Below are positions 3,193-22,758 of a DNA stretch of 24,000 nt, in pieces. The DNA comes from Candidatus Caenarcanum bioreactoricola (GTDB lineage: Bacteria > Cyanobacteriota > Vampirovibrionia > Caenarcaniphilales > Caenarcanaceae). The DNA lies in assembly GCA_001899385.1 (NCBI GenBank), contig MOYB01000003.1:1-24000 (forward strand). Reading direction: 5' to 3'. The position numbers were made by a program, and so were the translations under genes. The notes beneath the pieces are model-generated. The model did not search any database. It was not told the DNA's origin and worked only from the letters and a program-made list of their open reading frames with translations. The stretch's first letter is position 1. Each line of letters begins with the position of its first letter.

Positions 3193-3942
3193 ATGTCTTT
3201 AACTTCTACTAATGATCCATATTTTTTAGCATCTAATAATTCAAGTGTTTTTTCAAATAAAACAACTAATTTTGAAGATGCCTTAGAAAAATTAAATCAA
3301 GTATCTAGTCTTAATAATTCTTCTACAGATTATTATGATTTAGATGAAAAAGATGTACAGTCAATATTAAATAAACTTGGAACTTTTTTAGATAAAAATA
3401 CAGAAAAAGATACTGATAATGATTCTGTTTTAGGAAAAGGTGAATCTAAAGAAGTAGATGATTCTGTAAAAAATATAATTAAAGATCCAAAGAAAAGTAT
3501 AAAGGCTTTAGGCTTACCTTCAAATTTTAATCTTAGTATACCTAAAGTACATACTCTTGTTCCAAATTTTGGAGATTTTACAGGTCTAACTTCAATGTCT
3601 GTAGATATAACTGTTTCCGGACTTTATAAACAACTTCAACAATTATATTCTGTTCAAAATTACTTAGATTCTACCGATTGTAAGCCTGCTGGCGGTTTTT
3701 CTTATATAAAAGGTAGACCTGCTTATAAGGATGATACTCCTGAAGGAAAGAAAATGCAAGATCAAGTTTTTGCTGCTTTAAAAAATGAAATTTTAAATCA
3801 ACTAACAAAGCTTATTCAACAAATTGATGTAATGACAAAAGGACTTCAACAACAACAACAAATGGCTGAAAGTTTTAGAAAATTCCAAGATAGTGCAGTA
3901 GCAAAAGCTATTAAAAAAGCTTCTGGAGGCGGTAACGCTTAA
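3193..3942 (+). CDS. Hypothetical Asn/Ser/Gln-rich protein (249 aa)
   Basis: ATG ORF with no competing frame. No signal peptide or transmembrane segment. The C-terminus looks coiled-coil-like with a QQQQQ run. No family recognised. Confidence 0.55.
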   Translation: MSLTSTNDPYFLASNNSSVFSNKTTNFEDALEKLNQVSSLNNSSTDYYDLDEKDVQSILNKLGTFLDKNTEKDTDNDSVLGKGESKEVDDSVKNIIKDPKKSIKALGLPSNFNLSIPKVHTLVPNFGDFTGLTSMSVDITVSGLYKQLQQLYSVQNYLDSTDCKPAGGFSYIKGRPAYKDDTPEGKKMQDQVFAALKNEILNQLTKLIQQIDVMTKGLQQQQQMAESFRKFQDSAVAKAIKKASGGGNA

Positions 3943-3950
3943 TAAATAAT

Positions 3951-4772
3951 TTATCTTAAAATCAAAACTTTTTTAACAGTAGATGTATCTTCAAAAAGTC
4001 TTACAAATATTTCAAGTTCTGAATTGTTTTTATCTTTTCTTATTTTTATTACTTTACCAAATGGATAAGCACTAGGGAAAACTCTTGGAAAAATCTCAGT
4101 TGCAGAAATACTTGAAGTTTGAACAATATCACCTTTTTTAATATCAGAACCTATTGGAACAAATCGTAATTTTGCTATTTGTAAATTATCTGTACCGAAG
4201 ATTATACCTGTTACTTTAGATCTACTTATTTCAGCACCAAATTTAACTTGATTTTCTCTAATTAAAGAAACAATAGAATAAGTTTTTTCAACACGACTAA
4301 TTTGACCTAATATACCTTTGTCTGTAACAGCAATCATACCTACTTTTAAACCTTCATTAAAACCTTTATCTATTATTAATTCCTTATACCAATTATTAGG
4401 AGAACGAGAAACTACTTTTGCTAAAATTGCATTATTAAATTTATCTTTTTTTAATTTATAAAGTTTTGCTAAATAATCATTATCTTTAATTATTTGTCTC
4501 ATTATTTCAATATCTTTTTCATATTCAGAAAGTTTTTTTTCTAAAATTTTGTTTTTAAAATATTCTTTTTCAAAAGCCTTTTTTGAATCTAAAAATCTAT
4601 TGAAATTATAAGAAACAAAATCCGATGTTTTTTCATTTCTAGAGCTTATATTGCTAAAAACAGAAGGGTAAAATTCTTTAAATAAAAATGCAGATAAAAT
4701 ACCTAAGACTGTAGCACTAATACAAACTAAAAATATTTTCATCCAATTTAATTTAGATTTTTTATTAATCAC
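3951..4772 (-). CDS. mreC: Rod shape-determining protein MreC
   Basis: N-terminal membrane anchor (IFLVCISATVLGILSAFLF), then a coiled-coil segment, then MreC beta-domain patterns (A.VV.RSP.NW...IIDKG...G...GM.V....G..G.I..V...S.V.LI). The track start is GTG at 4772. An in-frame ATG at 4742 is an alternative start. Confidence 0.8.
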   Translation of the reverse strand: MINKKSKLNWMKIFLVCISATVLGILSAFLFKEFYPSVFSNISSRNEKTSDFVSYNFNRFLDSKKAFEKEYFKNKILEKKLSEYEKDIEIMRQIIKDNDYLAKLYKLKKDKFNNAILAKVVSRSPNNWYKELIIDKGFNEGLKVGMIAVTDKGILGQISRVEKTYSIVSLIRENQVKFGAEISRSKVTGIIFGTDNLQIAKLRFVPIGSDIKKGDIVQTSSISATEIFPRVFPSAYPFGKVIKIRKDKNNSELEIFVRLFEDTSTVKKVLILR

Positions 4773-5575: not shown

Positions 5576-5848
5576 ATGCAGGATAAGGATCAAAATAAAG
5601 AGTGCGAAAAATACAGAAAGAATTTTTCTGGAAAAGTTGTGAGCACTAAAATGGAAAAAACTATTACAGTCTTGATTGAAAGACAAATACAAGATAAAAA
5701 ATATAAAAAAATAGTTAAAAGACGCAAAAAATTATTAGCTCATGTACCTGATGGTTTAGTATGCGCAGAAGGTGATTTTGTAACTATAGAATCATGCAGA
5801 CCTATTAGCAAGAATAAATCTTTTATATTAAAGTCTATAAATAAATAA
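5576..5848 (+). CDS. rpsQ: 30S ribosomal protein S17
   Basis: The motif G.VVS.KM.KTI.V...R......YKK.V.R.KK..AH and the C-terminal E.CRPISK.KSF motif are characteristic of S17. It has an N-terminal extension of about 15 aa. Confidence 0.92.
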
Positions 5849-5864
5849 TTTTAAGGAGAAAATA

Positions 5865-6242
5865 ATGATTCAACAAGAAACATGGCTAGAAGTAGCAGAT
5901 AATAGTGGAGCAAAAAAGCTTGAGTGCATTCGTGTTCTTAAAACTGGAAGTGGAGAAGGAAAAGCAGTTGGAAATGTTGGCGACGTAATAGTTGCTGCTG
6001 TTAAATCTGCAGAACCTAAATCTTCTGTAAAAAAAGGTAGTGTTGTAAAAGCTGTAATCGTAAGAGTTAGAAAACGCAAAAGAAGAAAAAATGGTTCAGT
6101 TATTTCTTTTGACGAAAATGCGGCTGTACTTATAAATGATAAATTAGAACCTATTGGTACTCGTATTTTTGGACCTATTGATAGAGGGTTAAGAGAATTT
6201 GGTTTTGCTAAAATATTATCTTTAGCTCCTGATGTTGTTTAA
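5865..6242 (+). CDS. rplN: 50S ribosomal protein L14
   Basis: [15 protein letters not shown]...CIRVL ... FDENAAVLI....EP.GTRIFGP..R.LR...F.KI.SLAP.V is a canonical L14 sequence. A strong AAGGAG Shine-Dalgarno sits at 5853-5858. Confidence 0.97.
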
Positions 6243-6259
6243 CTTTTACTTTTCTTTTT

Positions 6260-6778
6260 ATGAAATTTTTAAAATATTTATTTCGTCTAAAGCCTGATTT
6301 TTCTATAGATGGAATAATCACTGATTTAAGTATAGAAATTTTAAAGAATAATAATATAAAAGGTTTAATCTTAGATCTTGATAATACTATAATTGCTTCT
6401 AAAGCCGGCATTTTAGATGATGAAATTAAATCTTGGTTAAAACAAGCTCAAAATAATGAAATTAAATTAATTGTTGTTAGTAATAATAATAATAGTACTT
6501 ATCTAAAACAAATAGAACCTATATTAAAAGAATTAGATATAGAATTAATTGGAAAAGCTTGTAAACCTTTTAGTAAAAATTTAAAAAAAGCAATTCAAAT
6601 ACTTGATTTACCAGTTGAAAATATATGTTTAATAGGTGATAGAGTTTTAACAGATATATTAGGTGGAGTGAATTTAAATATGAAAACAGCTCTTGTTAAG
6701 CCTCTTATAGGAGATAAAGAAAATATTATATATAAAAATTTAAGGAAATTAGAATATATTTTCTTGTATAAAAGTTAA
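6260..6778 (+). CDS. yqeG: YqeG-family HAD-IIIA phosphatase
   Basis: HAD motif I LDLDNT, motif II VVSNN, and K...GDR..TDI..G (motifs III/IV), with overall length and layout typical of the YqeG/GEP4-like subfamily. Confidence 0.85.
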   Translation: MKFLKYLFRLKPDFSIDGIITDLSIEILKNNNIKGLILDLDNTIIASKAGILDDEIKSWLKQAQNNEIKLIVVSNNNNSTYLKQIEPILKELDIELIGKACKPFSKNLKKAIQILDLPVENICLIGDRVLTDILGGVNLNMKTALVKPLIGDKENIIYKNLRKLEYIFLYKS

Positions 6779-6788
6779 AATTAATTAA

Positions 6789-8597
6789 ATGAATACAGAA
6801 TCAATAAGAAATTTTTCAATAATAGCTCATATAGATCATGGTAAATCAACACTTGCAGATAGACTTCTTGAATATACGGGTACTATAAGCAAAAGAGATA
6901 TGGAAGAACAAGTTCTTGATAATCTTGACTTGGAAAAAGAAAGAGGCATTACTATAAAGCTTCAAACAGCCCGAATGGACTATAAAGCTAAAGATAAAAA
7001 AAATTATATAATAAATCTTATTGATACACCTGGGCATGTTGATTTTAGTTATGAAGTTTCTAGAAGCTTAGCTGCTTGTGAAGGGGCTTTGCTTGTAATA
7101 GATGCATCTCAAGGTATAGAAGCACAAACACTTGCAAATGTTTTTATTGCTTTTGAAAATAATCTTGAAATAATTCCTGTTATAAATAAAATAGATCTTC
7201 CCTCTGCTGATATAGAAAGAACTAAAAAAGAAATAGAAAGTGTAATAGGCATAGATGCAGATAATGCAATTCTTGTTAGTGCAAAAACTGGTATTGGTAT
7301 AGAAGAATTATTTGAAGCTATTATTGAAAGAGTCCCTCCCCCTAGAAATAATGCACAAAGCCCTCCTAGAGCATTGATTTTTGATAGTTATTATGATCCT
7401 TATAGAGGTATTGTAACTGTTGTAAAAATAATTGATGGTTGCCTTAAAAAGGGTGATAAAATCAAGCTTATGGCAGCAGCTCCTAATGAAGAATTTGAAA
7501 TTTTAGAATTAGGATTTTTAAAGCCAAAACAAATAGAAACTTCTAGTTTAGCTTGTGGAGAAGTAGGTTATATTGCTGCTTCTATAAAATCTATTTATTC
7601 TCTTGTAGGAGATACTATTACATTAAAAGAACATGGTGCAAAAGAAGCTTTGCCTGGTTATAAAGCAGCAGTACCTTTAGTATTTTGCGGTATTTATCCT
7701 ATAAATTCTATTGACTATCATAATCTTAAAGATGCTCTTGAAAAACTAAGACTTAATGATAGTTCTATAACTGCTGAGCCTGAAACTTCTGCTGCATTAG
7801 GTTTTGGTTTTAGATGTGGATTCTTAGGCTTACTTCATATGGAAATTGCTAAAGAACGTCTTGAACGAGAATATAATCTTGATTTAATAGCAACAGCACC
7901 AAGTGTAATTTATAAAATAACCACAACAAAAGGTGAAATTCTTGAAATAGATAATCCTTGTAATTTACCAGAGCCAATGTTAAGAGAAAAAATAGAAGAA
8001 CCTTGGGTAAAAGCAACTATTAATTGTCCTCCTGAATATGTTGGTACTTTAATGGATTTATGCCAAGATCGTAGAGGAATTTTTTCAAATATGGAACATA
8101 GTGGAGAAAGAAAAGTTTCTTTGTTTTATGAATTACCTTTAGGAGAAATCTTAACAGACTTCTTTGATCAACTTAAATCTCGTTCTAAAGGTTATGCAAC
8201 TTTAGATTATGAACAAATTGGTTATAAAGAAGGGGATTTAGTGCGTATGGACATAAAGCTTGCAGGAGAAAATGTTGATGCTTTTTCGGTTATAACACAT
8301 CAAAGTAAAGCTTTTTATTTAGGAAGAAAACTTACAAAAAAATTAAAAGAAATTATACCAAAACAACTTTTTGAGGTAGCAATACAAGCAGCTATAGGAA
8401 GTAAGGTCATTGCAAGAGAAACTATCTCAGCCATGAGAAAAAATGTTTTAGCAAAATGTTATGGTGGAGATATAAGTAGAAAAAGAAAACTTCTTGATAA
8501 ACAAAAAGAAGGAAAGAAAAAGATGAAAGCAATAGGAAGTGTAGAAGTTCCACAAGAAGCTTTTCTTGCAGTTTTGAAAACAAGCGAAGAAAATTAA
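6789..8597 (+). CDS. lepA: Translation elongation factor 4 (LepA)
   Basis: 602 aa. G motifs [17 protein letters not shown] and NKIDL are present. The LepA-specific C-terminal domain is also present ([36 protein letters not shown]). Confidence 0.98.
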
Positions 8598-8612: not shown

Positions 8613-11600
8613 TTATAAACTTAATCCAGCAATATCTGTAATATCAATATCTAAAACATTCATAAAATCTATATCTTCTATATAACCAGTACCAGCTGTA
8701 TTATTACTATTTTCCGCAAAATAATTTTCTATAAGAAGACTATTAGAACCAATAGTAATTAATAAATCATCACCAGTTGTAGTACTACCTTCTTGATGAG
8801 TAAAGATAGAACTTGAATAAGTAAAATCAGTTAAATCTATATTATCAGTACCTCCTCTATCTAAAATACGATCATTAGCAAAATCTTGTCTAAAAATATA
8901 ACTATCATTAGTTGAATAAACATCATAGAAATTATCATTTTGTGTAGTTGAAACAAAAAGATTTGCAGTATTATTTCCTCTTATATAAGAATCTCCTATT
9001 CTATTACCATTAGAATCAAATCTTTGAGAATAAATTCCTTCAGCATTCCCATCTTGATTATAAGATTGCCATGTAACTAAGAATCCACCATCTTCTAATC
9101 CAAGAACATTACAATCTCTTTGACTATTATTTGTATAAGAATTAACTTGAAATTCATTTCCTACTTTATTACCATTAGAATCATATCTTTGTGCGAAAAT
9201 CCCTTCATAACTACTATCTTGTCCATAAGACTGCCATGCTATTACAAATCCACCATCTTTTAATCCACTAACACTTGAATCTTGTTGACTATTTGTAATA
9301 TAAGTATTAACTTGAAATTCATTATCTATTTTATTACCATTAGAATCAAATATTTGTGCAAAAATTCCAAAATTATCTCCATCTTGAGCTTGTGAAGTCC
9401 AACTAATTACAAAATTGCCATTTTCTAAAACACTAGTTGCTATTTTTGATTGAGCTCCTGTAGTATAAGTATTAACTTGAAATTCACTACCTATTTTATT
9501 ACCATTAGAATCAAATATTTGAGCAAAAATTCCAAAATTATCGCCATCTTGTCTATTAGATTCCCATGTAATTAAAAAATTATTATTTGTAAGATTTGTT
9601 ATAAAAGGATTTTGTTGATCAAATTTTGTAGTTGTATTAATTTGAAATTCATTTCCTATTTTACTACCATCAAAATTAAATATTTGTGCATAAACTCCTA
9701 AACCATTCCCATCTTGGTTTTGAGAAGTCCAAGTAATTACAAAATTACCATTATCTAATGTACTTATCGCTGAAAGTTTTTGTGTACTTGCTGTATAAGT
9801 ATTAACTTGAAACTCACTTCCTATTCTGTTGCCTATAGAATCATATATTTGTGCATAAACCCCATAATTACTACCATCTTGACCATCTGATGACCATGTG
9901 ACAACAAAATTACCATTATTGAGACTATTAACTATTGCATTATCTTGACTTTTAGTTGTATAAGTATTAATTTGAAATTCATTACCTAGTTTATTTCCAT
10001 TAGAATCATACATTTGACCATAAATTCCAAAACTATCTCCATCTTGTCCATTTGATTGCCATGTAATCACTGTGTTGCCATTAATTAGTTCAGTAGAAGA
10101 AGCTAAAGATTGCGTTCCTTGATAATAAGTGCTAACAGAAGTTTCATTAGTAGAAATTAAATCATTTTTTAAAGTTATAGTTGCATTAAAAGTCTGATTA
10201 GTTATAGTTGTTTTTCCATCACTTAAACTAAAATTAAAATTAGCAGTTGTTGATTCAGTGCCATCATGTAATATTGCAACTTGTCCTGCTTCAATTTGTG
10301 CTTGTGTAAAACTTCCATTAGAATTTACCCAAGTATTAGTATTAATATCCCATTCTTGTACTATTAAACGTGTTTGGCTATTTATAGTATAAATTAAATT
10401 TTCTTTTAGTGTGTCTATATCTATAGCATTTAAATCAGCAGTTGTAATAATATATCTGGAAGATTCTATAAGTGCACTAGTTCTATCTCCGCTAAGAGTT
10501 GGAGCAATATTATTATGATTTACAGTAATATTAAAAGCTTGAGAAGTTAAAGTATTTATTCCGTCGCTAACAATAAAATTAAAACTTGAGTTCCCTGTTA
10601 ATGAATTATTATGCTGAAACATAACTAAATTGTTATTTATGTCAGCTTGTGTAAAAGTATTAGAAGCTATGCCATTAACTAAAATATTTCCATTAATTAA
10701 ATTATTTGCTGTATAAGTAAGTTGTGAAGCTGTATTATCTAAGTCAGTAGTATTTAAATCAGAAGAAGTTATTGTATATGTAGAACCTTCATTAACTTCT
10801 CCGGTTCTATCTCCTGAAAACACAGGAACTTCATTTATTTTTAAAATTAAATTTTCTATTTTTCCTGTTGTATAGTAATTATTTATTGTAATTTTATTTC
10901 CACTTCCAAAATCTAAAATTAAACTATTTCCACTTTTAGTCCATAAATTTGCTTCTATTTCATAATTAATTCCTATTTGTGTAATACCTGTGATATTTCC
11001 GATTAAATTACTAAGATCTAATGTATCGGTGCCTGCTGAATCTGTTATTATGTCTGTCCCATCATTAAGCTCATAAATATAAGTATCATTTTTATTTCCT
11101 CCAATAAAAACATCATTCCCAGCGCCACCATTAAAAATAGTATTATAATTTGTATTTCCGATAAGAACATCATGTCCTTGTCCAGCAATAATAGTGCTAA
11201 ATTTACTTAAATAATAAAAGTTTACAGTGTTAGAGCCTGAAGTAATAGCATTTGTTGTAATATTTAGATTTATTATAGTATTAGTAGTGATCAGAGAAAG
11301 ATCTAAAATATTTTCATATCTAATATTCTTAGGATTAAAATTATTTACATCTATTAGGTAATCTCGTCCAAAATTATCTTCGAAAACATAAGTATCAATA
11401 CCTAAGCCACCGTATAAATAATCATTACCAGTTCCACCAGCTAAAATATCATTACCATTTCCAGCATAGATTCTATCATTTCCATCTCCACCATATAATA
11501 TGTCATTTCCATTATCACCCAGAATAGTATCACTACCTTCATTGCCTTCTATATAATCATTATTAGCTCCACCAGATAATTTATCATTGCCTATACCTCC

Positions 11601-11885
11601 AAATAACTTATCATTGCCATTTCCACCTTCTAATGTGTCATTTCCAATACCACCATTTAAATAATCATTGCCATTAGCTGCTATAAGATAATCATTGCCT
11701 CCGTAACCAAAAAGATAATCATCACCATCTCCCGAAATAAGTACATCTGAGCCATTTTTACCTACTAAAGTATCGTTTCCTCCTAAAGAATACAAATAAT
11801 GATTATTATCAGTTAAAGCTATAAGAGTTACTCCTAAGCCTGATAAATCTTTTATTTGTATATATCTTGAAGGATTAATTACCAT
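8613..11885 (-). CDS. Giant multi-domain calcium-binding repeat protein (RTX nonapeptides + cadherin-like modules + 7 x 55-aa propeller-type repeats)
   Basis: Uninterrupted 1090-aa ORF with no N-terminal signal peptide. It contains 14 consecutive GGxGxDxUx nonapeptides (aa 35-160) plus a short second block (aa 236-268). Two modules of about 105-115 aa carry the FTQxxI...V...H......F.F..SDG signature. Seven tandem 55-aa repeats follow. The C-terminal module (GGTDNIDLTDF...LLI...IENYF...IEDIDF) resembles the non-repeat ends of RTX-family proteins. Confidence 0.85.
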   Translation of the reverse strand: MVINPSRYIQIKDLSGLGVTLIALTDNNHYLYSLGGNDTLVGKNGSDVLISGDGDDYLFGYGGNDYLIAANGNDYLNGGIGNDTLEGGNGNDKLFGGIGNDKLSGGANNDYIEGNEGSDTILGDNGNDILYGGDGNDRIYAGNGNDILAGGTGNDYLYGGLGIDTYVFEDNFGRDYLIDVNNFNPKNIRYENILDLSLITTNTIINLNITTNAITSGSNTVNFYYLSKFSTIIAGQGHDVLIGNTNYNTIFNGGAGNDVFIGGNKNDTYIYELNDGTDIITDSAGTDTLDLSNLIGNITGITQIGINYEIEANLWTKSGNSLILDFGSGNKITINNYYTTGKIENLILKINEVPVFSGDRTGEVNEGSTYTITSSDLNTTDLDNTASQLTYTANNLINGNILVNGIASNTFTQADINNNLVMFQHNNSLTGNSSFNFIVSDGINTLTSQAFNITVNHNNIAPTLSGDRTSALIESSRYIITTADLNAIDIDTLKENLIYTINSQTRLIVQEWDINTNTWVNSNGSFTQAQIEAGQVAILHDGTESTTANFNFSLSDGKTTITNQTFNATITLKNDLISTNETSVSTYYQGTQSLASSTELINGNTVITWQSNGQDGDSFGIYGQMYDSNGNKLGNEFQINTYTTKSQDNAIVNSLNNGNFVVTWSSDGQDGSNYGVYAQIYDSIGNRIGSEFQVNTYTASTQKLSAISTLDNGNFVITWTSQNQDGNGLGVYAQIFNFDGSKIGNEFQINTTTKFDQQNPFITNLTNNNFLITWESNRQDGDNFGIFAQIFDSNGNKIGSEFQVNTYTTGAQSKIATSVLENGNFVISWTSQAQDGDNFGIFAQIFDSNGNKIDNEFQVNTYITNSQQDSSVSGLKDGGFVIAWQSYGQDSSYEGIFAQRYDSNGNKVGNEFQVNSYTNNSQRDCNVLGLEDGGFLVTWQSYNQDGNAEGIYSQRFDSNGNRIGDSYIRGNNTANLFVSTTQNDNFYDVYSTNDSYIFRQDFANDRILDRGGTDNIDLTDFTYSSSIFTHQEGSTTTGDDLLITIGSNSLLIENYFAENSNNTAGTGYIEDIDFMNVLDIDITDIAGLSL
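8991..10148 (-). repeat. Seven in-frame tandem 165-bp (55-aa) coding repeats
   Basis: The anchor ATTAA(C/T)TTGAAAT recurs on the plus strand at 9141, 9306, 9471, 9636, 9801 and 9966 (exact 165-nt period), with a degenerate copy at 10131. The protein consensus is G[NS]EFQVNTYT..xQ....V..L.NGNFV.TW.S..QDG...GI[FY]AQI[FY]DSNGNKI. Confidence 0.9.
10167..10835 (-). other. Two cadherin-like (CSPG/FRAS1-type) modules within the giant protein
   Basis: aa 351-456 and 457-573 each contain ...DL...D.D.....L.YT...... FTQA.I....V...H.......F.F..SDG... This matches my memory of the cadherin-like/CSPG repeat signature. The assignment is by pattern only. Confidence 0.5.
11391..11783 (-). repeat. RTX (hemolysin-type calcium-binding) nonapeptide array, 14 x 27 bp
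   Basis: The array reads GGNDTLVGK NGSDVLISG DGDDYLFGY GGNDYLIAA NGNDYLNGG IGNDTLEGG NGNDKLFGG IGNDKLSGG ANNDYIEGN EGSDTILGD NGNDILYGG DGNDRIYAG NGNDILAGG TGNDYLYGG. Confidence 0.9.
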
Positions 11886-11994: not shown

Positions 11995-13176
11995 TTAATT
12001 ATTTAAAAGATCATTAATTATCCAATTATAAATATGTTCCTCTTTTTGATCTGGATGCATAATATCTTTATATTTTTGATTTTTAGGTTGTCTCCAATCT
12101 ATATGATTAAATCCAAAGAAAACTCTTGATAGTTCAGTACTTGGACAAAAATTATTTTTAGGAAAAATCCTTGACCATTCTTCAGGTTGTTTCTCGTTTT
12201 CATTGCAAACTCTTGCCCACAAAGCACTACTTAAAGGTGTAACACCATCATTTAATTTTAGATTATTTCTTAATTCAGGCTTTTCATCATTATATTTTTT
12301 TCTAGCCATAATTTTATTTAATTCTATTTGTGAAGTTCTTGAACTCATAAATAAATTCCTTGGTATACATTCAAGGAAAAAAACTTCTAAATATTCTGCG
12401 GGATTATCAGGATAAAAAGGGAAAAAGAAAGAACCATAAGTAATAAATTTATTTTTATTCTTTACTTCTGGAATAAAAGCTTGTTTAGGAGGATTATAAT
12501 TTGCAGAAGATGGCAAAGATTTATCAAAATCAAGCCAAGCTTGTTCTTTTTCTAAAAATTTATAACGATTTCTAAGCATATTTAAAACAAGAGTACTTTT
12601 AAATTTTATAATAGGATCTTTATTTTCTATAGCAGAATAAACAAGTTGAGGAGTTACAACAAAAGTACCCTGATGTCCTGTTGCCATTGTAATTACTTTA
12701 TCTGTCATAGATTCTAAATCAGAATGTTTATTTAAAATTATTCTAGGAAGAAGTCCTCCTTGGCTATAACCAATAAAATTAAGTGATTTAATATTTTTTT
12801 CTTGAATAAGCATTTGCCTTATAGCTTTTTCAAGAATATCCGAGGATTCATAAAGACTTCCCCAAGCATAATAACGAAAAACAAATATTTTATAATCTTT
12901 TAATTCAGGATCTATTCTAGTTTTCCAAATATTCCAGAAATTTCCCCATTCATATAATTCTTTACTTAATTTTGCAGAATTTAAACCAGGTATTAAAATC
13001 AAAGCTTTAGTAGCTTCAGATGATTGTTTTAAAGATATTTGTGTTAAAGTGTTAATTCTTTGTGAAGGTCCAGTAGCTATTCTAGAATCGTAATATATAT
13101 TTTGTTTTATATCTTTTGCTGATACAGCCATTGATATAAAAATTAGAAATATTAATAAAAATTTTAAAAGTTTCAT
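11995..13176 (-). CDS. Secreted alpha/beta-hydrolase, lipase/esterase-like (GxSxG = GYSQG)
   Basis: Sec signal peptide MKLLKFLLIFLIFISMAVSA|KD. It has a LILIPGLNS oxyanion-region-like strand and the nucleophile elbow FIGYSQGG (Ser138 codon at 12763-12765). A downstream TMATGHQGT motif resembles lipase class 2/DUF676/PGAP1-like hydrolases. Confidence 0.7.
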   Translation of the reverse strand: MKLLKFLLIFLIFISMAVSAKDIKQNIYYDSRIATGPSQRINTLTQISLKQSSEATKALILIPGLNSAKLSKELYEWGNFWNIWKTRIDPELKDYKIFVFRYYAWGSLYESSDILEKAIRQMLIQEKNIKSLNFIGYSQGGLLPRIILNKHSDLESMTDKVITMATGHQGTFVVTPQLVYSAIENKDPIIKFKSTLVLNMLRNRYKFLEKEQAWLDFDKSLPSSANYNPPKQAFIPEVKNKNKFITYGSFFFPFYPDNPAEYLEVFFLECIPRNLFMSSRTSQIELNKIMARKKYNDEKPELRNNLKLNDGVTPLSSALWARVCNENEKQPEEWSRIFPKNNFCPSTELSRVFFGFNHIDWRQPKNQKYKDIMHPDQKEEHIYNWIINDLLNN

Positions 13177-13280: not shown

Positions 13281-13298
13281 TTTTAAAAGAGGTTAGAA

Positions 13299-14420
13299 AT
13301 GTCAACAGGTTTTAATGCTTTTAATTATTACAACATAAATGCTGTTAATAATTTTGCTTCACTTAATAATGCGATACTTGTTCAATCGGGCAATGCAACA
13401 GGTTCTGCAGATGATAATATATCACCTGGATGGAATGGTGATAACAATTCAAATTTAAACGATATTTTTTATGGTGGATCTGGCCTTGAATGGTTTAATG
13501 GGGGAAATTCAACAACAGATGGTGCTAATATTTATGTTAGAGGTGCTTATACACTTAGTACAGATCCTACTGATCCTATTATAGCAGATACTGCTGGTTT
13601 GAACACTTATTTCGTAGGACCTGCACACGGAGCTTACACAAGAACTTATGATGGGTATGGGGACGTTAATGTGCCTGCAGATCCCGGCAGTAATGATATT
13701 ATAGATTTACAACAATCAACAACAGTAGGCGGAGTAACATATGATTTTCCAATTCAAAGCGAAGATCATGAAATAATATACATGGTAGGTGTTAGAGATA
13801 ATGAAGTAGGTCAAACCGATTTAATTGCAAGTCATGGGAGAGTTAATGGAACTGATTATCAAATAACCTATACTGATGGACATGTTACTTATATTAGAGG
13901 CATGTTTGATAGTGAAACTGATACAGAACCTAATGCAACTATTCAATATGATAATTGTGAAGAGCTTGATTTAGATATTCCTGATGACGACGATGATGAT
14001 GATGATGATGATGACGATGACGACGACGATGACGATGAGCCTGACGACGATGATGACGACGATGATGATGACGATGATGACGATGATGATGACGATGATG
14101 ATGACGACGATGATGATGACGATGATGATGACGACGATGATGACGACGACGAACCTGATGATGACTGCCCATGTCCACCAAATACAAATATAAATGTTAA
14201 TATAAATCCAATTCAGAATAATATAAATAACTCTGCATGGTCATGGTCAAATGCTCAAGTATTTAATAGCAATAGAAACCATTCAGGATCTCATTCTTCC
14301 TTTGGAAGTCTATTTAGAAATAATAGAGCAACAAATTTCGGCAATATAACACAAGTAAATGCAAATCCTTTTGTAGGACTTAATCTTGGAAATATATTTA
14401 ATCTCCTTGGAATAAGATAA
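13299..14420 (+). CDS. Hyper-acidic poly-aspartate protein (373 aa)
   Basis: ATG preceded by AGAGG, and a terminator follows. The N-terminal 225 aa is a Gly/Asp/Asn/Thr-rich domain with no signal peptide. The central tract carries 57 Asp in 63 residues. The C-terminal 80 aa is Asn-rich. Confidence 0.75.
   Translation: MSTGFNAFNYYNINAVNNFASLNNAILVQSGNATGSADDNISPGWNGDNNSNLNDIFYGGSGLEWFNGGNSTTDGANIYVRGAYTLSTDPTDPIIADTAGLNTYFVGPAHGAYTRTYDGYGDVNVPADPGSNDIIDLQQSTTVGGVTYDFPIQSEDHEIIYMVGVRDNEVGQTDLIASHGRVNGTDYQITYTDGHVTYIRGMFDSETDTEPNATIQYDNCEELDLDIPDDDDDDDDDDDDDDDDDDEPDDDDDDDDDDDDDDDDDDDDDDDDDDDDDDDDDDDDEPDDDCPCPPNTNINVNINPIQNNINNSAWSWSNAQVFNSNRNHSGSHSSFGSLFRNNRATNFGNITQVNANPFVGLNLGNIFNLLGIR
13983..14165 (+). 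repeat. GAT/GAC codon tract encoding D18-EP-D36-EP-D3
   Basis: Counted codon by codon: 18 Asp (13983-14036), GAG CCT, 36 Asp (14043-14150), GAA CCT, then 3 Asp. 23 of the 57 Asp codons are GAC, often in the unit GAC GAT GAT GAT. Confidence 0.95.
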
Positions 14421-14448: not shown

Positions 14449-14483
14449 ATCCTTCTTTCTATAAATAGAGAGAGGGATTTTTT
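14449..14483 (+). terminator. Rho-independent terminator of the poly-Asp gene
   Basis: 13-bp stem in which 14449-14461 pairs with 14466-14478 (two G-U pairs in the plus-strand RNA), a TAAA loop, then a run of 5 T (14479-14483). It overlaps the murG stop codon on the other strand. Confidence 0.65.
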
Positions 14484-15576
14484 AATTAAAAAAAGATTTA
14501 ATAATATTACTTATTGTAATTACTGCATTTTTTTCTTTAAATTTTACTTCTAAATTTTTAAGATAAACTTCTTTTTTTTCAGTTATTTTATTAATTGCGG
14601 TAATTAAATTATTTACAGTTAAATCTTTTTGCTCTAAAAGAAAACAATAATCTTTAGAAGCAAGAATTGAAGCATTATAAAATTGATGATTTTGAGCAAG
14701 ATTAGGTAAAGGTATTATTATTGAAGGAATTTTCTTAGCACAGATTTCAGCTAAAGTCATTGCTCCTGCTCGTCCTATAATAAGATCAGTTGCTGAATAT
14801 AATAATGCTATTTTGTCTATATAAGAAAAAGCTTTGTAATTATTAAAATATTTTTCAGTTAAATTATTAATTTGATTTTTTAATCTCTGAAATTCTTTTT
14901 CTCCTAATTGATGAACTATTTGCCAATTATTAGCAATCAATTCTTCGATACAATCTAAAATAATATTATTAATTATTTGTGAACCTTGACTTCCTCCAGT
15001 AATAGTAAGAATTTTTTTATTAAAATCAAGTCCAAAGTCTTTACAAGCAATTTCTTTTGAAATTTCATTAAAAAATTCTTGTCTAATAGGATTTCCACTT
15101 AAAATAATAGGAGCATTTTTTGTTTTAATTATAGTTTTTGGTTCTAATCCAAAGCTAAGACAATTAGAATTCTTAGCAAAAATTTTATTTGATAAACCCA
15201 TAATAGAATCTAAATTATGAATTATATAAGGAATTTTAAAAAGATTTGCTGCTAATAAAATTGATGCAGAAGCATAACCACCAGTACTAAAAATTAAATC
15301 AGGTTTTTGTTTTTTTAAAATATAACAAGCTTCTATAGTTGCAAAAAAAAGTTTAAAAATCCAAAAAATTATTTTCCAAGATCTAGGCATTCCTCCTATA
15401 AAAGAAATATATTCTCTTTTTATATTTGCTTCTAAAGCCTTATTATCTTCTAATTTTGATTTGCAAACAAAATAAAAAAAATCAAATTCTTTATAATTCT
15501 TAAGGTTCTCATGTATAGCTAATATGGGATATATATGTCCACCGCTTCCACCACCTGCAAAAGCAATTTTTTTCAT
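14482..15576 (-). CDS. murG: Undecaprenyl-PP-MurNAc-pentapeptide GlcNAc transferase MurG
   Basis: N-terminal motif AGGGSGGHIYPILAI, GT28 layout, and the C-terminal TGGSQGS and RAGA.T..E motifs. Confidence 0.93.
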   Translation of the reverse strand: MKKIAFAGGGSGGHIYPILAIHENLKNYKEFDFFYFVCKSKLEDNKALEANIKREYISFIGGMPRSWKIIFWIFKLFFATIEACYILKKQKPDLIFSTGGYASASILLAANLFKIPYIIHNLDSIMGLSNKIFAKNSNCLSFGLEPKTIIKTKNAPIILSGNPIRQEFFNEISKEIACKDFGLDFNKKILTITGGSQGSQIINNIILDCIEELIANNWQIVHQLGEKEFQRLKNQINNLTEKYFNNYKAFSYIDKIALLYSATDLIIGRAGAMTLAEICAKKIPSIIIPLPNLAQNHQFYNASILASKDYCFLLEQKDLTVNNLITAINKITEKKEVYLKNLEVKFKEKNAVITISNIIKSFFN

Positions 15577-21693: not shown

Positions 21694-22758
21694 ATGCAGA
21701 AAAATAATTTAAAGAAAAAGATATTTTCGCTTTCTTTTTTTGCTTTATTATTATTAACCTTTTTTACAAGTAGTTGTAGCTTAGGAATTAATGGTGATGC
21801 TGCTTCAAAAAAAGCTGAAAAATATTTAAATACTTATATTTTAAGAAATACCGGAGGAATAACTGCTAAAGCAGCCGGTGTAGATAAAAAAGATGAATTT
21901 TATGAAGTTCAAATTCAAATTCTTAAAGATAATCAGGTAATGGAAAAAGTACCAGTTCTTGTTACTAAAACTGGAAAAACTCTTATTCTTAATCCTCAAC
22001 AGACTCTTATATATAATTTAGATGTATCTCCTGAAGATGCTTTCTTAAAAGCAAGTAAAGAAGCTCAAACAAAGATGCTTAAAAATATTCCTAAAAAAGA
22101 CAAAGTTGAAGTTAAACTATTTGTTATGTCAGGCTGTCCTTTTGGAGTAGAAGCTGAAAATACTTTTTATAAAGTAATTAATCATCTTGGAAAAGATATT
22201 AAAGACCTTGATATTCAAGTAAAATATATTACTTCAAAAGTTAAATTAGAAAATAAAAATCCTAAATATTGTATTGAAAATTATTGTGCAATGCACGGTT
22301 TAGCAGAGATAAAAGAAAATCTTCGTCAAATATGTGTTGCAAATACTGATAAAGATAAATTTTGGGATTATTTAGCTGAATTTAATTCAAAATGTAAGCT
22401 TGATGAAAAAGCTGAATCTTGTGCTAATGAAATTATAAAAGCTAAAGCTATTGATGCACAAAAAATTGTAGATTGTATGAAAGCTCCTGTAGATTTATTT
22501 GAAAAAGATTTTCAGGAAAGTACAAAGTATGAAGCAACTGCTTCTCCTACAGTCATAATTAATGGTGCTAAATATGAAGGTATGAGAACTCCTAATGCTA
22601 TTTTAGAAGCAATGTGTGCAGGTTATAAAAATGCTCCTGCTATTTGCAAGCAAAAAATAAAAGATGGAGATAAAATCCCTGAAGCAGGAAATGCTTCTTG
22701 TGGAGCAAGTCCAGCTCCTGTAGCGGTACCTACAAAAGATGCCCCTGAAACAAAATAA
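21694..22758 (+). CDS. Thioredoxin-fold lipoprotein, GILT/DsbA-like with a CxxG motif
   Basis: Signal peptide with lipobox-like FFTSSC (Cys28). The thioredoxin-type strand-motif VKLFVMSGCPFG has its Cys148 codon at 22135-22137. YCAMHGLAEIKENLRQIC matches the GILT signature HG-x2-E-x3-N-x4-C. Confidence 0.6.
   Translation: MQKNNLKKKIFSLSFFALLLLTFFTSSCSLGINGDAASKKAEKYLNTYILRNTGGITAKAAGVDKKDEFYEVQIQILKDNQVMEKVPVLVTKTGKTLILNPQQTLIYNLDVSPEDAFLKASKEAQTKMLKNIPKKDKVEVKLFVMSGCPFGVEAENTFYKVINHLGKDIKDLDIQVKYITSKVKLENKNPKYCIENYCAMHGLAEIKENLRQICVANTDKDKFWDYLAEFNSKCKLDEKAESCANEIIKAKAIDAQKIVDCMKAPVDLFEKDFQESTKYEATASPTVIINGAKYEGMRTPNAILEAMCAGYKNAPAICKQKIKDGDKIPEAGNASCGASPAPVAVPTKDAPETK

Follow-up and report, generated by a model that had tools for sequence, protein, structure and literature searches.

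What kind of segment is a tract of 57 aspartates inside a bacterial protein of 373 residues, and how might it have arisen? The question is raised by a gene of Candidatus Caenarcanum bioreactoricola on contig MOYB01000003.1 (assembly GCA_001899385.1), of which we analyzed positions 1 to 24,000 (hereafter “the window,” to which all coordinates refer). By direct reading, residues 228-294 of the encoded protein (hereafter the poly-Asp protein) are P-D18-E-P-D36-E-P-D3-C-P-C-P-P, as the initial annotation of this DNA had described. Following P228, the first Asp run (D229-D246, 18 residues) lies at nt 13983-14036 of the plus strand, the second (D249-D284, 36 residues, with E-P on either side) at nt 14043-14150, and the third (D287-D289) at nt 14157-14165, after which C-P-C-P-P occupies nt 14166-14180. 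The annotation had counted 57 Asp among 63 residues; the 57 is correct, whereas the 63 takes in one flanking residue, as there are 57 Asp in the 61 codons of 13983-14165 (62 residues when the leading Pro is counted). We propose, with moderate confidence, that the tract is a real, translated and lineage-specific form of a hypervariable low-complexity spacer in a small orphan family of acidic, lysine-poor and probably exported proteins.

The family to which the poly-Asp protein belongs was previously unannotated and is defined in this analysis. An exhaustive phmmer search against 1.84 billion cluster representatives returned a single match, P0001 (394 aa, E = 1.4e-14; BLASTP E = 1e-23), and profile searches brought in P0002 and P0003 (395 aa each). 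These relatives represent three clusters at 90% identity, all from unannotated metagenome contigs with a G+C content (GC) of 35-39%. Over the N-terminal domain (N-domain) they share 30-42% identity with the poly-Asp protein, with 35 invariant columns (alignment A3). The N-domain alone found no match in a word-indexed search of 5.8 billion proteins, nor in GTDB species genome contigs or JGI metagenome contigs, and the family profile had no match in IMG/VR. Pfam, NCBIfam and PHROG hold no family for the four members, returning low-complexity noise only (such as Nop14, SepX/GlpR and RNase E); in the PHROG scan, all matches fell below threshold and were to families whose function is unknown.

All four proteins share one architecture (alignments A2 and A3): an N-domain of ~220 aa, a low-complexity linker, a Cys-Pro motif, a SNAQ-type motif and a polar tail. 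The N-domain is acidic and lysine-poor, and across the family it opens with MSxGF and closes with ATIxYD[ND]C..L; in the poly-Asp protein (residues 1-228, 13299..13982, plus strand) it starts with MSxGF and ends with ATIQYDNC..L. At the end of the linker, the Cys-Pro motif CPCPP (14166..14180, plus strand) has counterparts in P0001 (PPTCYYPP), P0002 (VCPP) and P0003 (YCPPACCPP...; YCPPACCPPACCPPPCPP). The post-linker motif INNSAWSWSNAQVF (14223..14264, plus strand), of the type INN.S.S.SNAQ[VI]F, aligns in the frame of the N-domain with NTVTNRSASLSNAQII of P0001 (E = 0.006) and INNESNAISNSQVF of P0002 (E = 0.06). The C-terminal tail (residues 295-373, 14181..14417, plus strand) has 22 Asn among its 79 residues, four Arg and no Asp or Glu; the homologues' tails are likewise rich in N/Q/S/Y/G, and the extreme C-termini of the four members (GNIFNLLGIR, MSNFFS, YNYNS, SNSYY) are not conserved. 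Every member carries Cys on each side of the linker (C220...C290/292 in the poly-Asp protein; 212...253, 224...276 and 223...272 in the relatives), from which one might speculate that the linker forms a disulfide-closed loop or a cross-linking site.

The linker is where the poly-Asp protein departs from its relatives. The segment P-D18-E-P-D36-E-P-D3 (13980..14165, plus strand) sits in the alignment columns of the homologues' Pro-rich low-complexity linkers, its Asp runs occupying the columns of TPIPTPTPTPTVTVTV... in P0001, PPVYPPVQPPVYPP... in P0002 and NPPGNPPNPPYNPP... in P0003 (alignment A2). The linker of P0001 is TPIPTPTPTPTVTVTVTVTVTPTPTPTVTVPP (TP/TV), that of P0002 is built of PPVYPPVQ repeats and that of P0003 of NPPxNPPY repeats; thus, in the three homologous clusters the linker is non-acidic and Pro/Thr/Val- or Pro-rich. 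At the DNA level, all homologue linkers consist of degenerate tandem repeats (periods of 6, 15/30, 21/45 and 12/36 nt). Within the 90% cluster of P0001, members are 89-94% identical overall and nearly identical in the N-domain, and their TP/TV linker varies by in-frame indels of 2 aa. P0001 and P0005 have, and P0004 and P0006 lack, a module of ~100 aa that comprises a second Cys/Pro/Thr linker and a second SNAQ motif; P0005 and P0006 come from one sample and different loci. Two versions of the P0001-type protein, at L091 10001-11200 (399 aa, two linker-plus-motif modules) and at L092 4120-5013 (297 aa, one such module), occur at different loci of the same sample; they differ by an entire module of ~100 aa and could be either paralogues or strain variants. 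The linker is thus the fast-evolving part of the family, and since the tract lies in the columns of the relatives' fast-changing linkers, poly-Asp is most likely the form that a hypervariable spacer has taken in this lineage. Both the prolines interspersed in the tract and the closing CPCPP may then be remnants of the family's Pro-rich linker.

The same comparison bears on whether the tract is translated at all. The gene is a complete ORF (open reading frame) of 373 aa plus stop (13299..14420, plus strand), preceded by a Shine-Dalgarno-like AAGAGG (13287..13292, plus strand, 6 nt ahead of the ATG by direct reading) and followed, 29 nt past the stop codon, by an intrinsic-terminator-like hairpin of 13 pairs and a T-run (14449..14488, plus strand); the search for such terminator-like sites gave three, whereas shuffled sequence would be expected to yield 0.4. 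On both sides, the sequence in the same frame as the tract is conserved in homologue alignments, the N-domain upstream and the Cys-Pro plus INNS..SNAQVF motifs downstream, and must therefore be read as Asp. In line with this, the initial annotation's argument that the long homopolymer is kept at the protein level gains support, and the frameshift relative to relatives that it had considered is not seen, as the flanks stay in the homologues' frame. An ORF on the minus strand (13939..14187), translating as a His/Arg run across the tract, and one in the plus-strand +2 frame (13984..14193) also span it; we regard both as side effects of the repeat. Assembly errors are common in low-complexity repeats and only one assembly is available, so the tract might in principle be an assembly or sequencing artifact, or the ORF a pseudogene. 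This is barely credible, given that the repeat is impure and thus hard to produce by collapse or expansion, that it is an exact multiple of three joining two segments conserved in the same frame, and that the gene has both a ribosome-binding site and a terminator. We conclude that the gene looks genuine and its tract translated.

How the tract is encoded gives a further clue to its history. Its Asp codons are 34 GAT and 23 GAC, which agrees with the annotation's count of 23 GAC in 57, and GAT indeed dominates elsewhere: the 21 other large ORFs of the window have 340 GAT and 35 GAC, and the remainder of the poly-Asp ORF 23 GAT and 1 GAC. GAC thus makes up 40% of the Asp codons versus a background of 9% (binomial P = 4.5e-10), and the GC of the tract is 47.5%, compared with 33% for the rest of the ORF and ~27% for the window. 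TRF (Tandem Repeats Finder) reports period-3 and period-12 arrays in the tract, the 12-nt period at 84% matches, and period-12 identity exceeds that of shuffled codon orders (P = 0.0085). The GAC-GAT-GAT-GAT unit, described earlier as frequent, occurs in six copies, which is not above shuffles (P = 0.12); the unit as such is weakly supported. The longest pure GAT run is 7 codons, a length reached by 36% of codon shuffles, and the GAC codons are spaced no more evenly than chance. We set aside a candidate perfect 27-nt duplication inside run 2, since the exact repeat of 38 nt found at offset 27 does not quite reach significance when compared with shuffled codon orders (P = 0.06). Nothing beyond the numbers themselves backs a meaning for the 1:2 ratio of 18 to 36 residues: in a hand count from the codon string, run 1 and the first half of run 2 agree at 10 of 18 codon third positions, about as expected by chance. 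The robust and strong signal in the tract is therefore GAC enrichment, not GAC placement.

The initial annotation had reasoned that an interrupted trinucleotide register suppresses slippage. The GAC enrichment on which this rests is real, but the argument is weakened by a placement no more even than chance, and because placement is random-like we do not favor slippage resistance as the cause of the excess. One candidate cause is easier decoding: tRNA-Asp carries the anticodon GUC, which forms Watson-Crick pairs with GAC and wobbles on GAU, and translation of poly-Asp is sensitive to the state of tRNA-Asp (PMC5372726). Another is amplification of units that already held GAC, which fits the period-12 signal.

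Long poly-Asp tracts elsewhere help to separate what is particular to this gene from what is general. The annotation had suggested searching databases for more than 30 consecutive Asp; in IMG/VR viral contigs, a scan for runs of at least 30 GAT/GAC codons recovered 91 tracts in 86 contigs, reaching 120 codons. Mixed coding is a general property of such tracts, because 69 of the 91 are mixed (median 34% GAC), even in contigs of 21-29% GC. Several carriers are phage gp32-like single-strand DNA-binding (SSB) proteins (PHROG 1192 and 15004), with D30 to D81 in acidic C-terminal regions, and others are giant-virus proteins. In the gp32-like SSB proteins of L023, L026, L040, L046 and L070, the poly-Asp of 30 to 81 residues often alternates with Lys-rich blocks such as KKSSKKPSKK, and most tracts mix GAT and GAC even in contigs of 24-29% GC. 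The proteins of L062 (D43) and L076 (D56) have similar N-termini. The longest run, at 3880-4239 of the 104-kb contig L080, spans 120 consecutive Asp codons, of which 53% are GAC with no pure run longer than 5, and belongs to a Lys-rich protein of 276 aa and unknown function. Thus, the statement that long bacterial poly-Asp is essentially undescribed is tempered by the phage SSB tails, while in a chromosomal gene of a bacterium an internal tract of D18+D36 nonetheless seems to be rare. A literature search on bacterial poly-aspartate returned alginate-type noise only. Why long poly-Asp tracts, including dozens in phages and giant viruses, carry ~35-50% GAC in very AT-rich genomes is a translation question in its own right.

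A second such question concerns the ribosome. Its exit tunnel accommodates 30-40 residues, and the 62-residue Asp/Glu/Pro stretch is longer than that; over much of the tract, nothing but poly-Asp therefore fills the tunnel. Ribosomes are destabilized when they translate runs of acidic residues interspersed with prolines, an effect counteracted by a nascent chain of at least 30 aa already in the exit tunnel (10.1101/2021.02.02.429294). In the poly-Asp protein, 227 residues precede the tract. The phage SSB tracts lie in genes expressed in bacteria, and bacterial ribosomes can therefore cope with them. The cost of translation nevertheless argues mildly against pure neutrality, and the tract offers an extreme natural test case for how a bacterial ribosome finishes such a stretch.

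The composition of the protein suggests where it may act. None of its 373 residues is Lys, compared with 2.2% Lys in a nearby RTX/cadherin-like protein and 7-20% in the other proteins of the window; the chance of zero Lys in the 310 non-tract residues is 1.7e-13. The protein has a net charge of ~-82, and it and the RTX neighbor both have an isoelectric point of 4.1 and 13-14% Asn. The homologues are also acidic and Lys-poor (1.0-1.5%). The two neighbors thus have a composition signature in common, although homology between them is not established. Based on composition, members of the family are probably exported or surface proteins. The poly-Asp protein has no N-terminal signal peptide: its N-terminus MSTGFNAFNYYNINAV lacks a hydrophobic core, and a longer one is impossible because 13299 is the first start codon past the upstream stop.

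How the spacer might have formed and might work can be sketched from these comparisons. The linker would evolve through in-frame expansion and contraction of short DNA repeats, as is seen in the family and as the 12-nt periodicity suggests for the tract itself. With a computed charge of ~-59 over 67 residues, the linker would be an intrinsically disordered chain that is stretched by electrostatic repulsion and separates the N-domain from the C-terminal module, a spacing job presumably the same as that of the polyproline-II-type linkers of the relatives. At one charge per ~3.6 Å, such a chain is above the threshold for Manning counter-ion condensation, a matter of established polyelectrolyte physics, and binding of Mg2+ and Ca2+ is thus an unavoidable physical consequence; such divalent cations would condense on the chain. 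Cation binding may or may not be a selected function as well; comparison with the homologues gives no sign of such selection. The GAC excess, finally, would reflect selection or survivorship acting on a long single-amino-acid run. Staphylococci provide an experimental precedent for exchange between such chemistries: SdrC has a Ser-Asp repeat and Aap a Pro/Gly-rich stalk, and the two are nearly indistinguishable in behavior, each being a disordered and highly extended chain (PMC9881980). By analogy, acidic and Pro-rich linkers may be functionally interchangeable as spacers. The “electrostatic spacer” that the initial annotation had listed as an alternative therefore turns out to fit the comparative data best, given the linkers that relatives have at the same position. 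If the spacer reading is correct, this family would provide a clean natural case of a switch in linker chemistry, from proline-rich to poly-aspartate, with position and flanking modules fixed, and would support the view that spacers are selected for extension rather than sequence.

Several observations weigh against the spacer reading. A passive spacer alone explains neither the 40% GAC nor why Asp reached 57 residues, and the cost implied by ribosome destabilization at acidic/Pro runs argues for a benefit specific to an acidic chain. Length variation of the tract itself is unobserved: neither MurG searches of genome and metagenome contigs nor exact-match queries with the poly-Asp protein, MurG, L14 and S20 found the same or a close genome, or another strain or species with this poly-Asp gene. 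Export rests on composition, as there is no signal peptide, no recognizable sorting signal and no secretion gene nearby. AlphaFold models are unusable for the fold (pLDDT, predicted local distance difference test, of 35.5 from the single sequence and 33.1 with the 4-sequence alignment) and so do not clarify the role of the N-domain.

In the initial annotation, the nearby RTX gene had made a calcium-related role attractive. An alpha/beta-hydrolase (esterase) gene with a signal peptide (11995-13176, minus strand) diverges from the poly-Asp gene, which is followed by a convergent murG. Beyond the hydrolase, 1.4 kb from the poly-Asp gene, lies the RTX/cadherin-like gene (1090 aa, 8613-11885, minus strand); being on the opposite strand and past the esterase gene, it is not in the operon of the poly-Asp gene. 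The homologue loci have other neighbors (pheT and rpoB, fmt, aconitase and an SLH-OprB porin, or a Kdo-transferase-like gene). Because no homologue locus has an RTX neighbor and there is no conserved synteny, adjacency is no evidence of a functional link. Within the N-domain, a degenerate RTX-like stretch, NDIFYGGSGLEWFNGGNSTTDGANIYV (13458..13538, plus strand), shows weak similarity only, and the similarity of N-domain residues ~50-140 to RTX beta-rolls is likewise weak. The family profile searched against the PDB gave weak matches to 9p6c_A “Hemolysin” (RTX, E = 0.0037) and to lipase 2z8x and CyaA 5cvw (E ~0.14). BLASTP to residues 244-392 of the RTX neighbor gave E = 3e-5 in a tiny database, and hhalign to that neighbor a probability of 1%. 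PF00353 (HemolysinCabind, GGxGxDxUx nonapeptides) had no match in the four members even at E <= 1, compared with 1.7e-29 for the RTX neighbor. Membership of the poly-Asp protein in the RTX family is thus not established. Type I secretion genes (ABC transporter, membrane-fusion protein, TolC) are absent from the 24 ORFs of the window, as are carbonate, phosphate or other mineralization-related genes; with only 24 kb covered, secretion genes of this type could be encoded in another part of the genome.

Against this background, the alternatives to a spacer can be weighed. One alternative is that a trinucleotide expansion, selectively neutral or mildly harmful, has been tolerated solely because it fell in an unconstrained linker, the tract being acidic without any role. 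The hypervariability of the linker, with in-frame indels between relatives ~90% identical, is compatible with this, as are the period-3 and period-12 arrays, the near-random order of GAC and GAT and the existence of pure (GAT)n arrays of similar length in other low-GC sequences. However, AT-biased mutation in a ~27% GC genome should erode a tract of 47.5% GC with more than four times the background share of GAC, a longest pure GAT run of only 7 leaves little potential for present-day slippage, and a useless tract of this length should be selected against, given the known risk of acidic/Pro runs to translation (10.1101/2021.02.02.429294). We therefore regard neutrality as unlikely but well short of negligible. 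Mimicry of nucleic acid, or trapping of polycations, in the manner of SSB acidic tails or DNA-mimic anti-restriction proteins, was among the alternatives of the initial annotation and has the D30 to D81 tails of the phage gp32-like proteins (PHROG 1192 and 15004) in its favor. Here, however, there is no DNA-binding or SSB domain and no PHROG or Pfam match for any family member; in the phage SSB proteins examined, poly-Asp lies in the C-terminal third and alternates with Lys-rich blocks, whereas this tract has Cys/Pro on both sides and a conserved module without charge after it, and the composition resembles that of the exported RTX neighbor and not that of cytoplasmic proteins. Such a role seems highly improbable.

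The initial annotation had instead favored calcium, that is, a dedicated high-capacity Ca2+-binding or mineral-controlling module, analogous to aspein/asprich or a calsequestrin tail and acting with the RTX neighbor. Polycarboxylate chemistry speaks for it (57 carboxylates, net charge ~-59), as do a composition that looks extracellular, the weak RTX-like similarity of the N-domain, the RTX/cadherin-like gene 1.4 kb away and eukaryotic precedents such as the 33 consecutive Asp of a chicken extracellular-matrix protein (PMC2115193). Homologues, however, have uncharged Pro/Thr/Val linkers at the same site, and the function of the family thus does not need an acidic tract. The RTX argument fares no better, with the neighbor missing from every homologue locus and in another operon here, no HemolysinCabind match and an hhalign probability of 1%, and the window lacks genes for mineralization or type I secretion. 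We consider this role improbable and, with it, the annotation's calcium and mineralization proposal unsupported by the family comparison. A variant in which a Pro-rich spacer was converted into a selected, cation-responsive surface polyanion, an aspein-like counterpart that buffers or stores Ca2+/Mg2+ or nucleates mineral, we hold to be decidedly improbable; if it were true, the organism would have to overcome the ribosome destabilization caused by acidic, Pro-containing nascent chains.

Other features of the window are recorded here as observations in their own right. In the RTX/Cadherin_3 protein (8613-11885, minus strand), the RTX nonapeptides lie near the N-terminus (residues ~70-210) and not at the C-terminus. 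The same 1090-aa gene contains ~6.4 tandem copies of a 165-nt (55-aa) repeat at 8995-10046, of the form GNEFQVNTYT...GNFVI.W.S..QDG..FGIFAQIFDSNGNKIG, with a partial match to CopC. At 21694-22758 (plus strand), a 354-aa protein with a lipoprotein-like signal sequence and 11 Cys has as its sole Pfam match the thioredoxin-like domain of eukaryotic vacuolar sorting receptors (PF25011, E = 2.3e-14). A 249-aa ORF at 3193-3942 (plus strand) is of low complexity, rich in Ser/Asn/Asp with QQQQQ near its C-terminus, and has no Pfam match and no signal peptide. At 5576-8597 the ribosomal protein genes S17 and L14 are on their own, outside the long operon in which they usually occur, and are followed by genes for a HAD phosphatase and LepA. 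Just downstream of the EF-Tu gene, at 8-43, ~3.5 tandem copies of AGGGGGAGTA form a short G-rich repeat that stands out in the very AT-rich window. An insertion in this EF-Tu, considered as a cyanobacterial trait, was dropped, as it is shared by the best PDB matches, 405-aa EF-Tu chains such as 1eft, which we take to be Thermus EF-Tu. Rfam and tRNA scans of the window returned nothing. The genome seems to represent a poorly sampled lineage, because no close relative was found in GTDB, JGI metagenomes or the exact-match collection.

Finally, we compared the poly-Asp protein with known systems that it resembles in part. Like RTX beta-roll proteins, it is acidic, Lys-poor and Asn/Gly-rich, has one or two degenerate GGxGxD-like units in its N-domain and an RTX gene nearby, and it lacks an N-terminal signal peptide, as do type I secretion substrates. 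Unlike them, it has no significant PF00353 match, and the stretch that resembles RTX is very short and located N-terminally; type I secretion genes are missing from the window, and the orphan family has conserved Cys, which is, as far as we know, unusual for RTX proteins. With the phage gp32-like SSB tails (PHROG 1192 and 15004) it shares mixed GAT/GAC coding of long poly-Asp, 30 to 81 residues in the phage proteins, but it lacks the SSB core that precedes those tails, and its tract is internal with a conserved module downstream. Aspein and asprich are eukaryotic poly-Asp proteins. They and the chicken laminin-binding protein, with its 33 consecutive Asp (PMC2115193), resemble the poly-Asp protein in having very long Asp runs, in being probably extracellular and acidic and in their physical capacity to bind Ca2+; here, however, there is no homology to them, no signal peptide and no mineralizing context, and within the family the tract is replaceable by uncharged Pro-rich linkers.

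As a hypervariable spacer, the tract resembles the Ser-Asp repeats of the staphylococcal Clf/Sdr surface proteins and the Pro/Gly-rich region of Aap. The poly-Asp protein differs from the Clf/Sdr proteins in that it lacks an LPXTG anchor, a signal peptide and any sequence homology to them, in having homopolymers (D18, D36) in place of a dipeptide repeat, and in belonging to an uncultured low-GC bacterium in which its surface location is presumed from composition. In the staphylococcal proteins, likewise, a disordered low-complexity segment, acidic or Pro-rich, connects a folded ligand domain to a C-terminal module, and the stalks, as in this family, vary in length and derive from degenerate tandem repeats in which synonymous codons are mixed. 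In-frame change of repeat length among close relatives, as in Clf/Sdr, is also seen for the homologous linker within the P0001 cluster.

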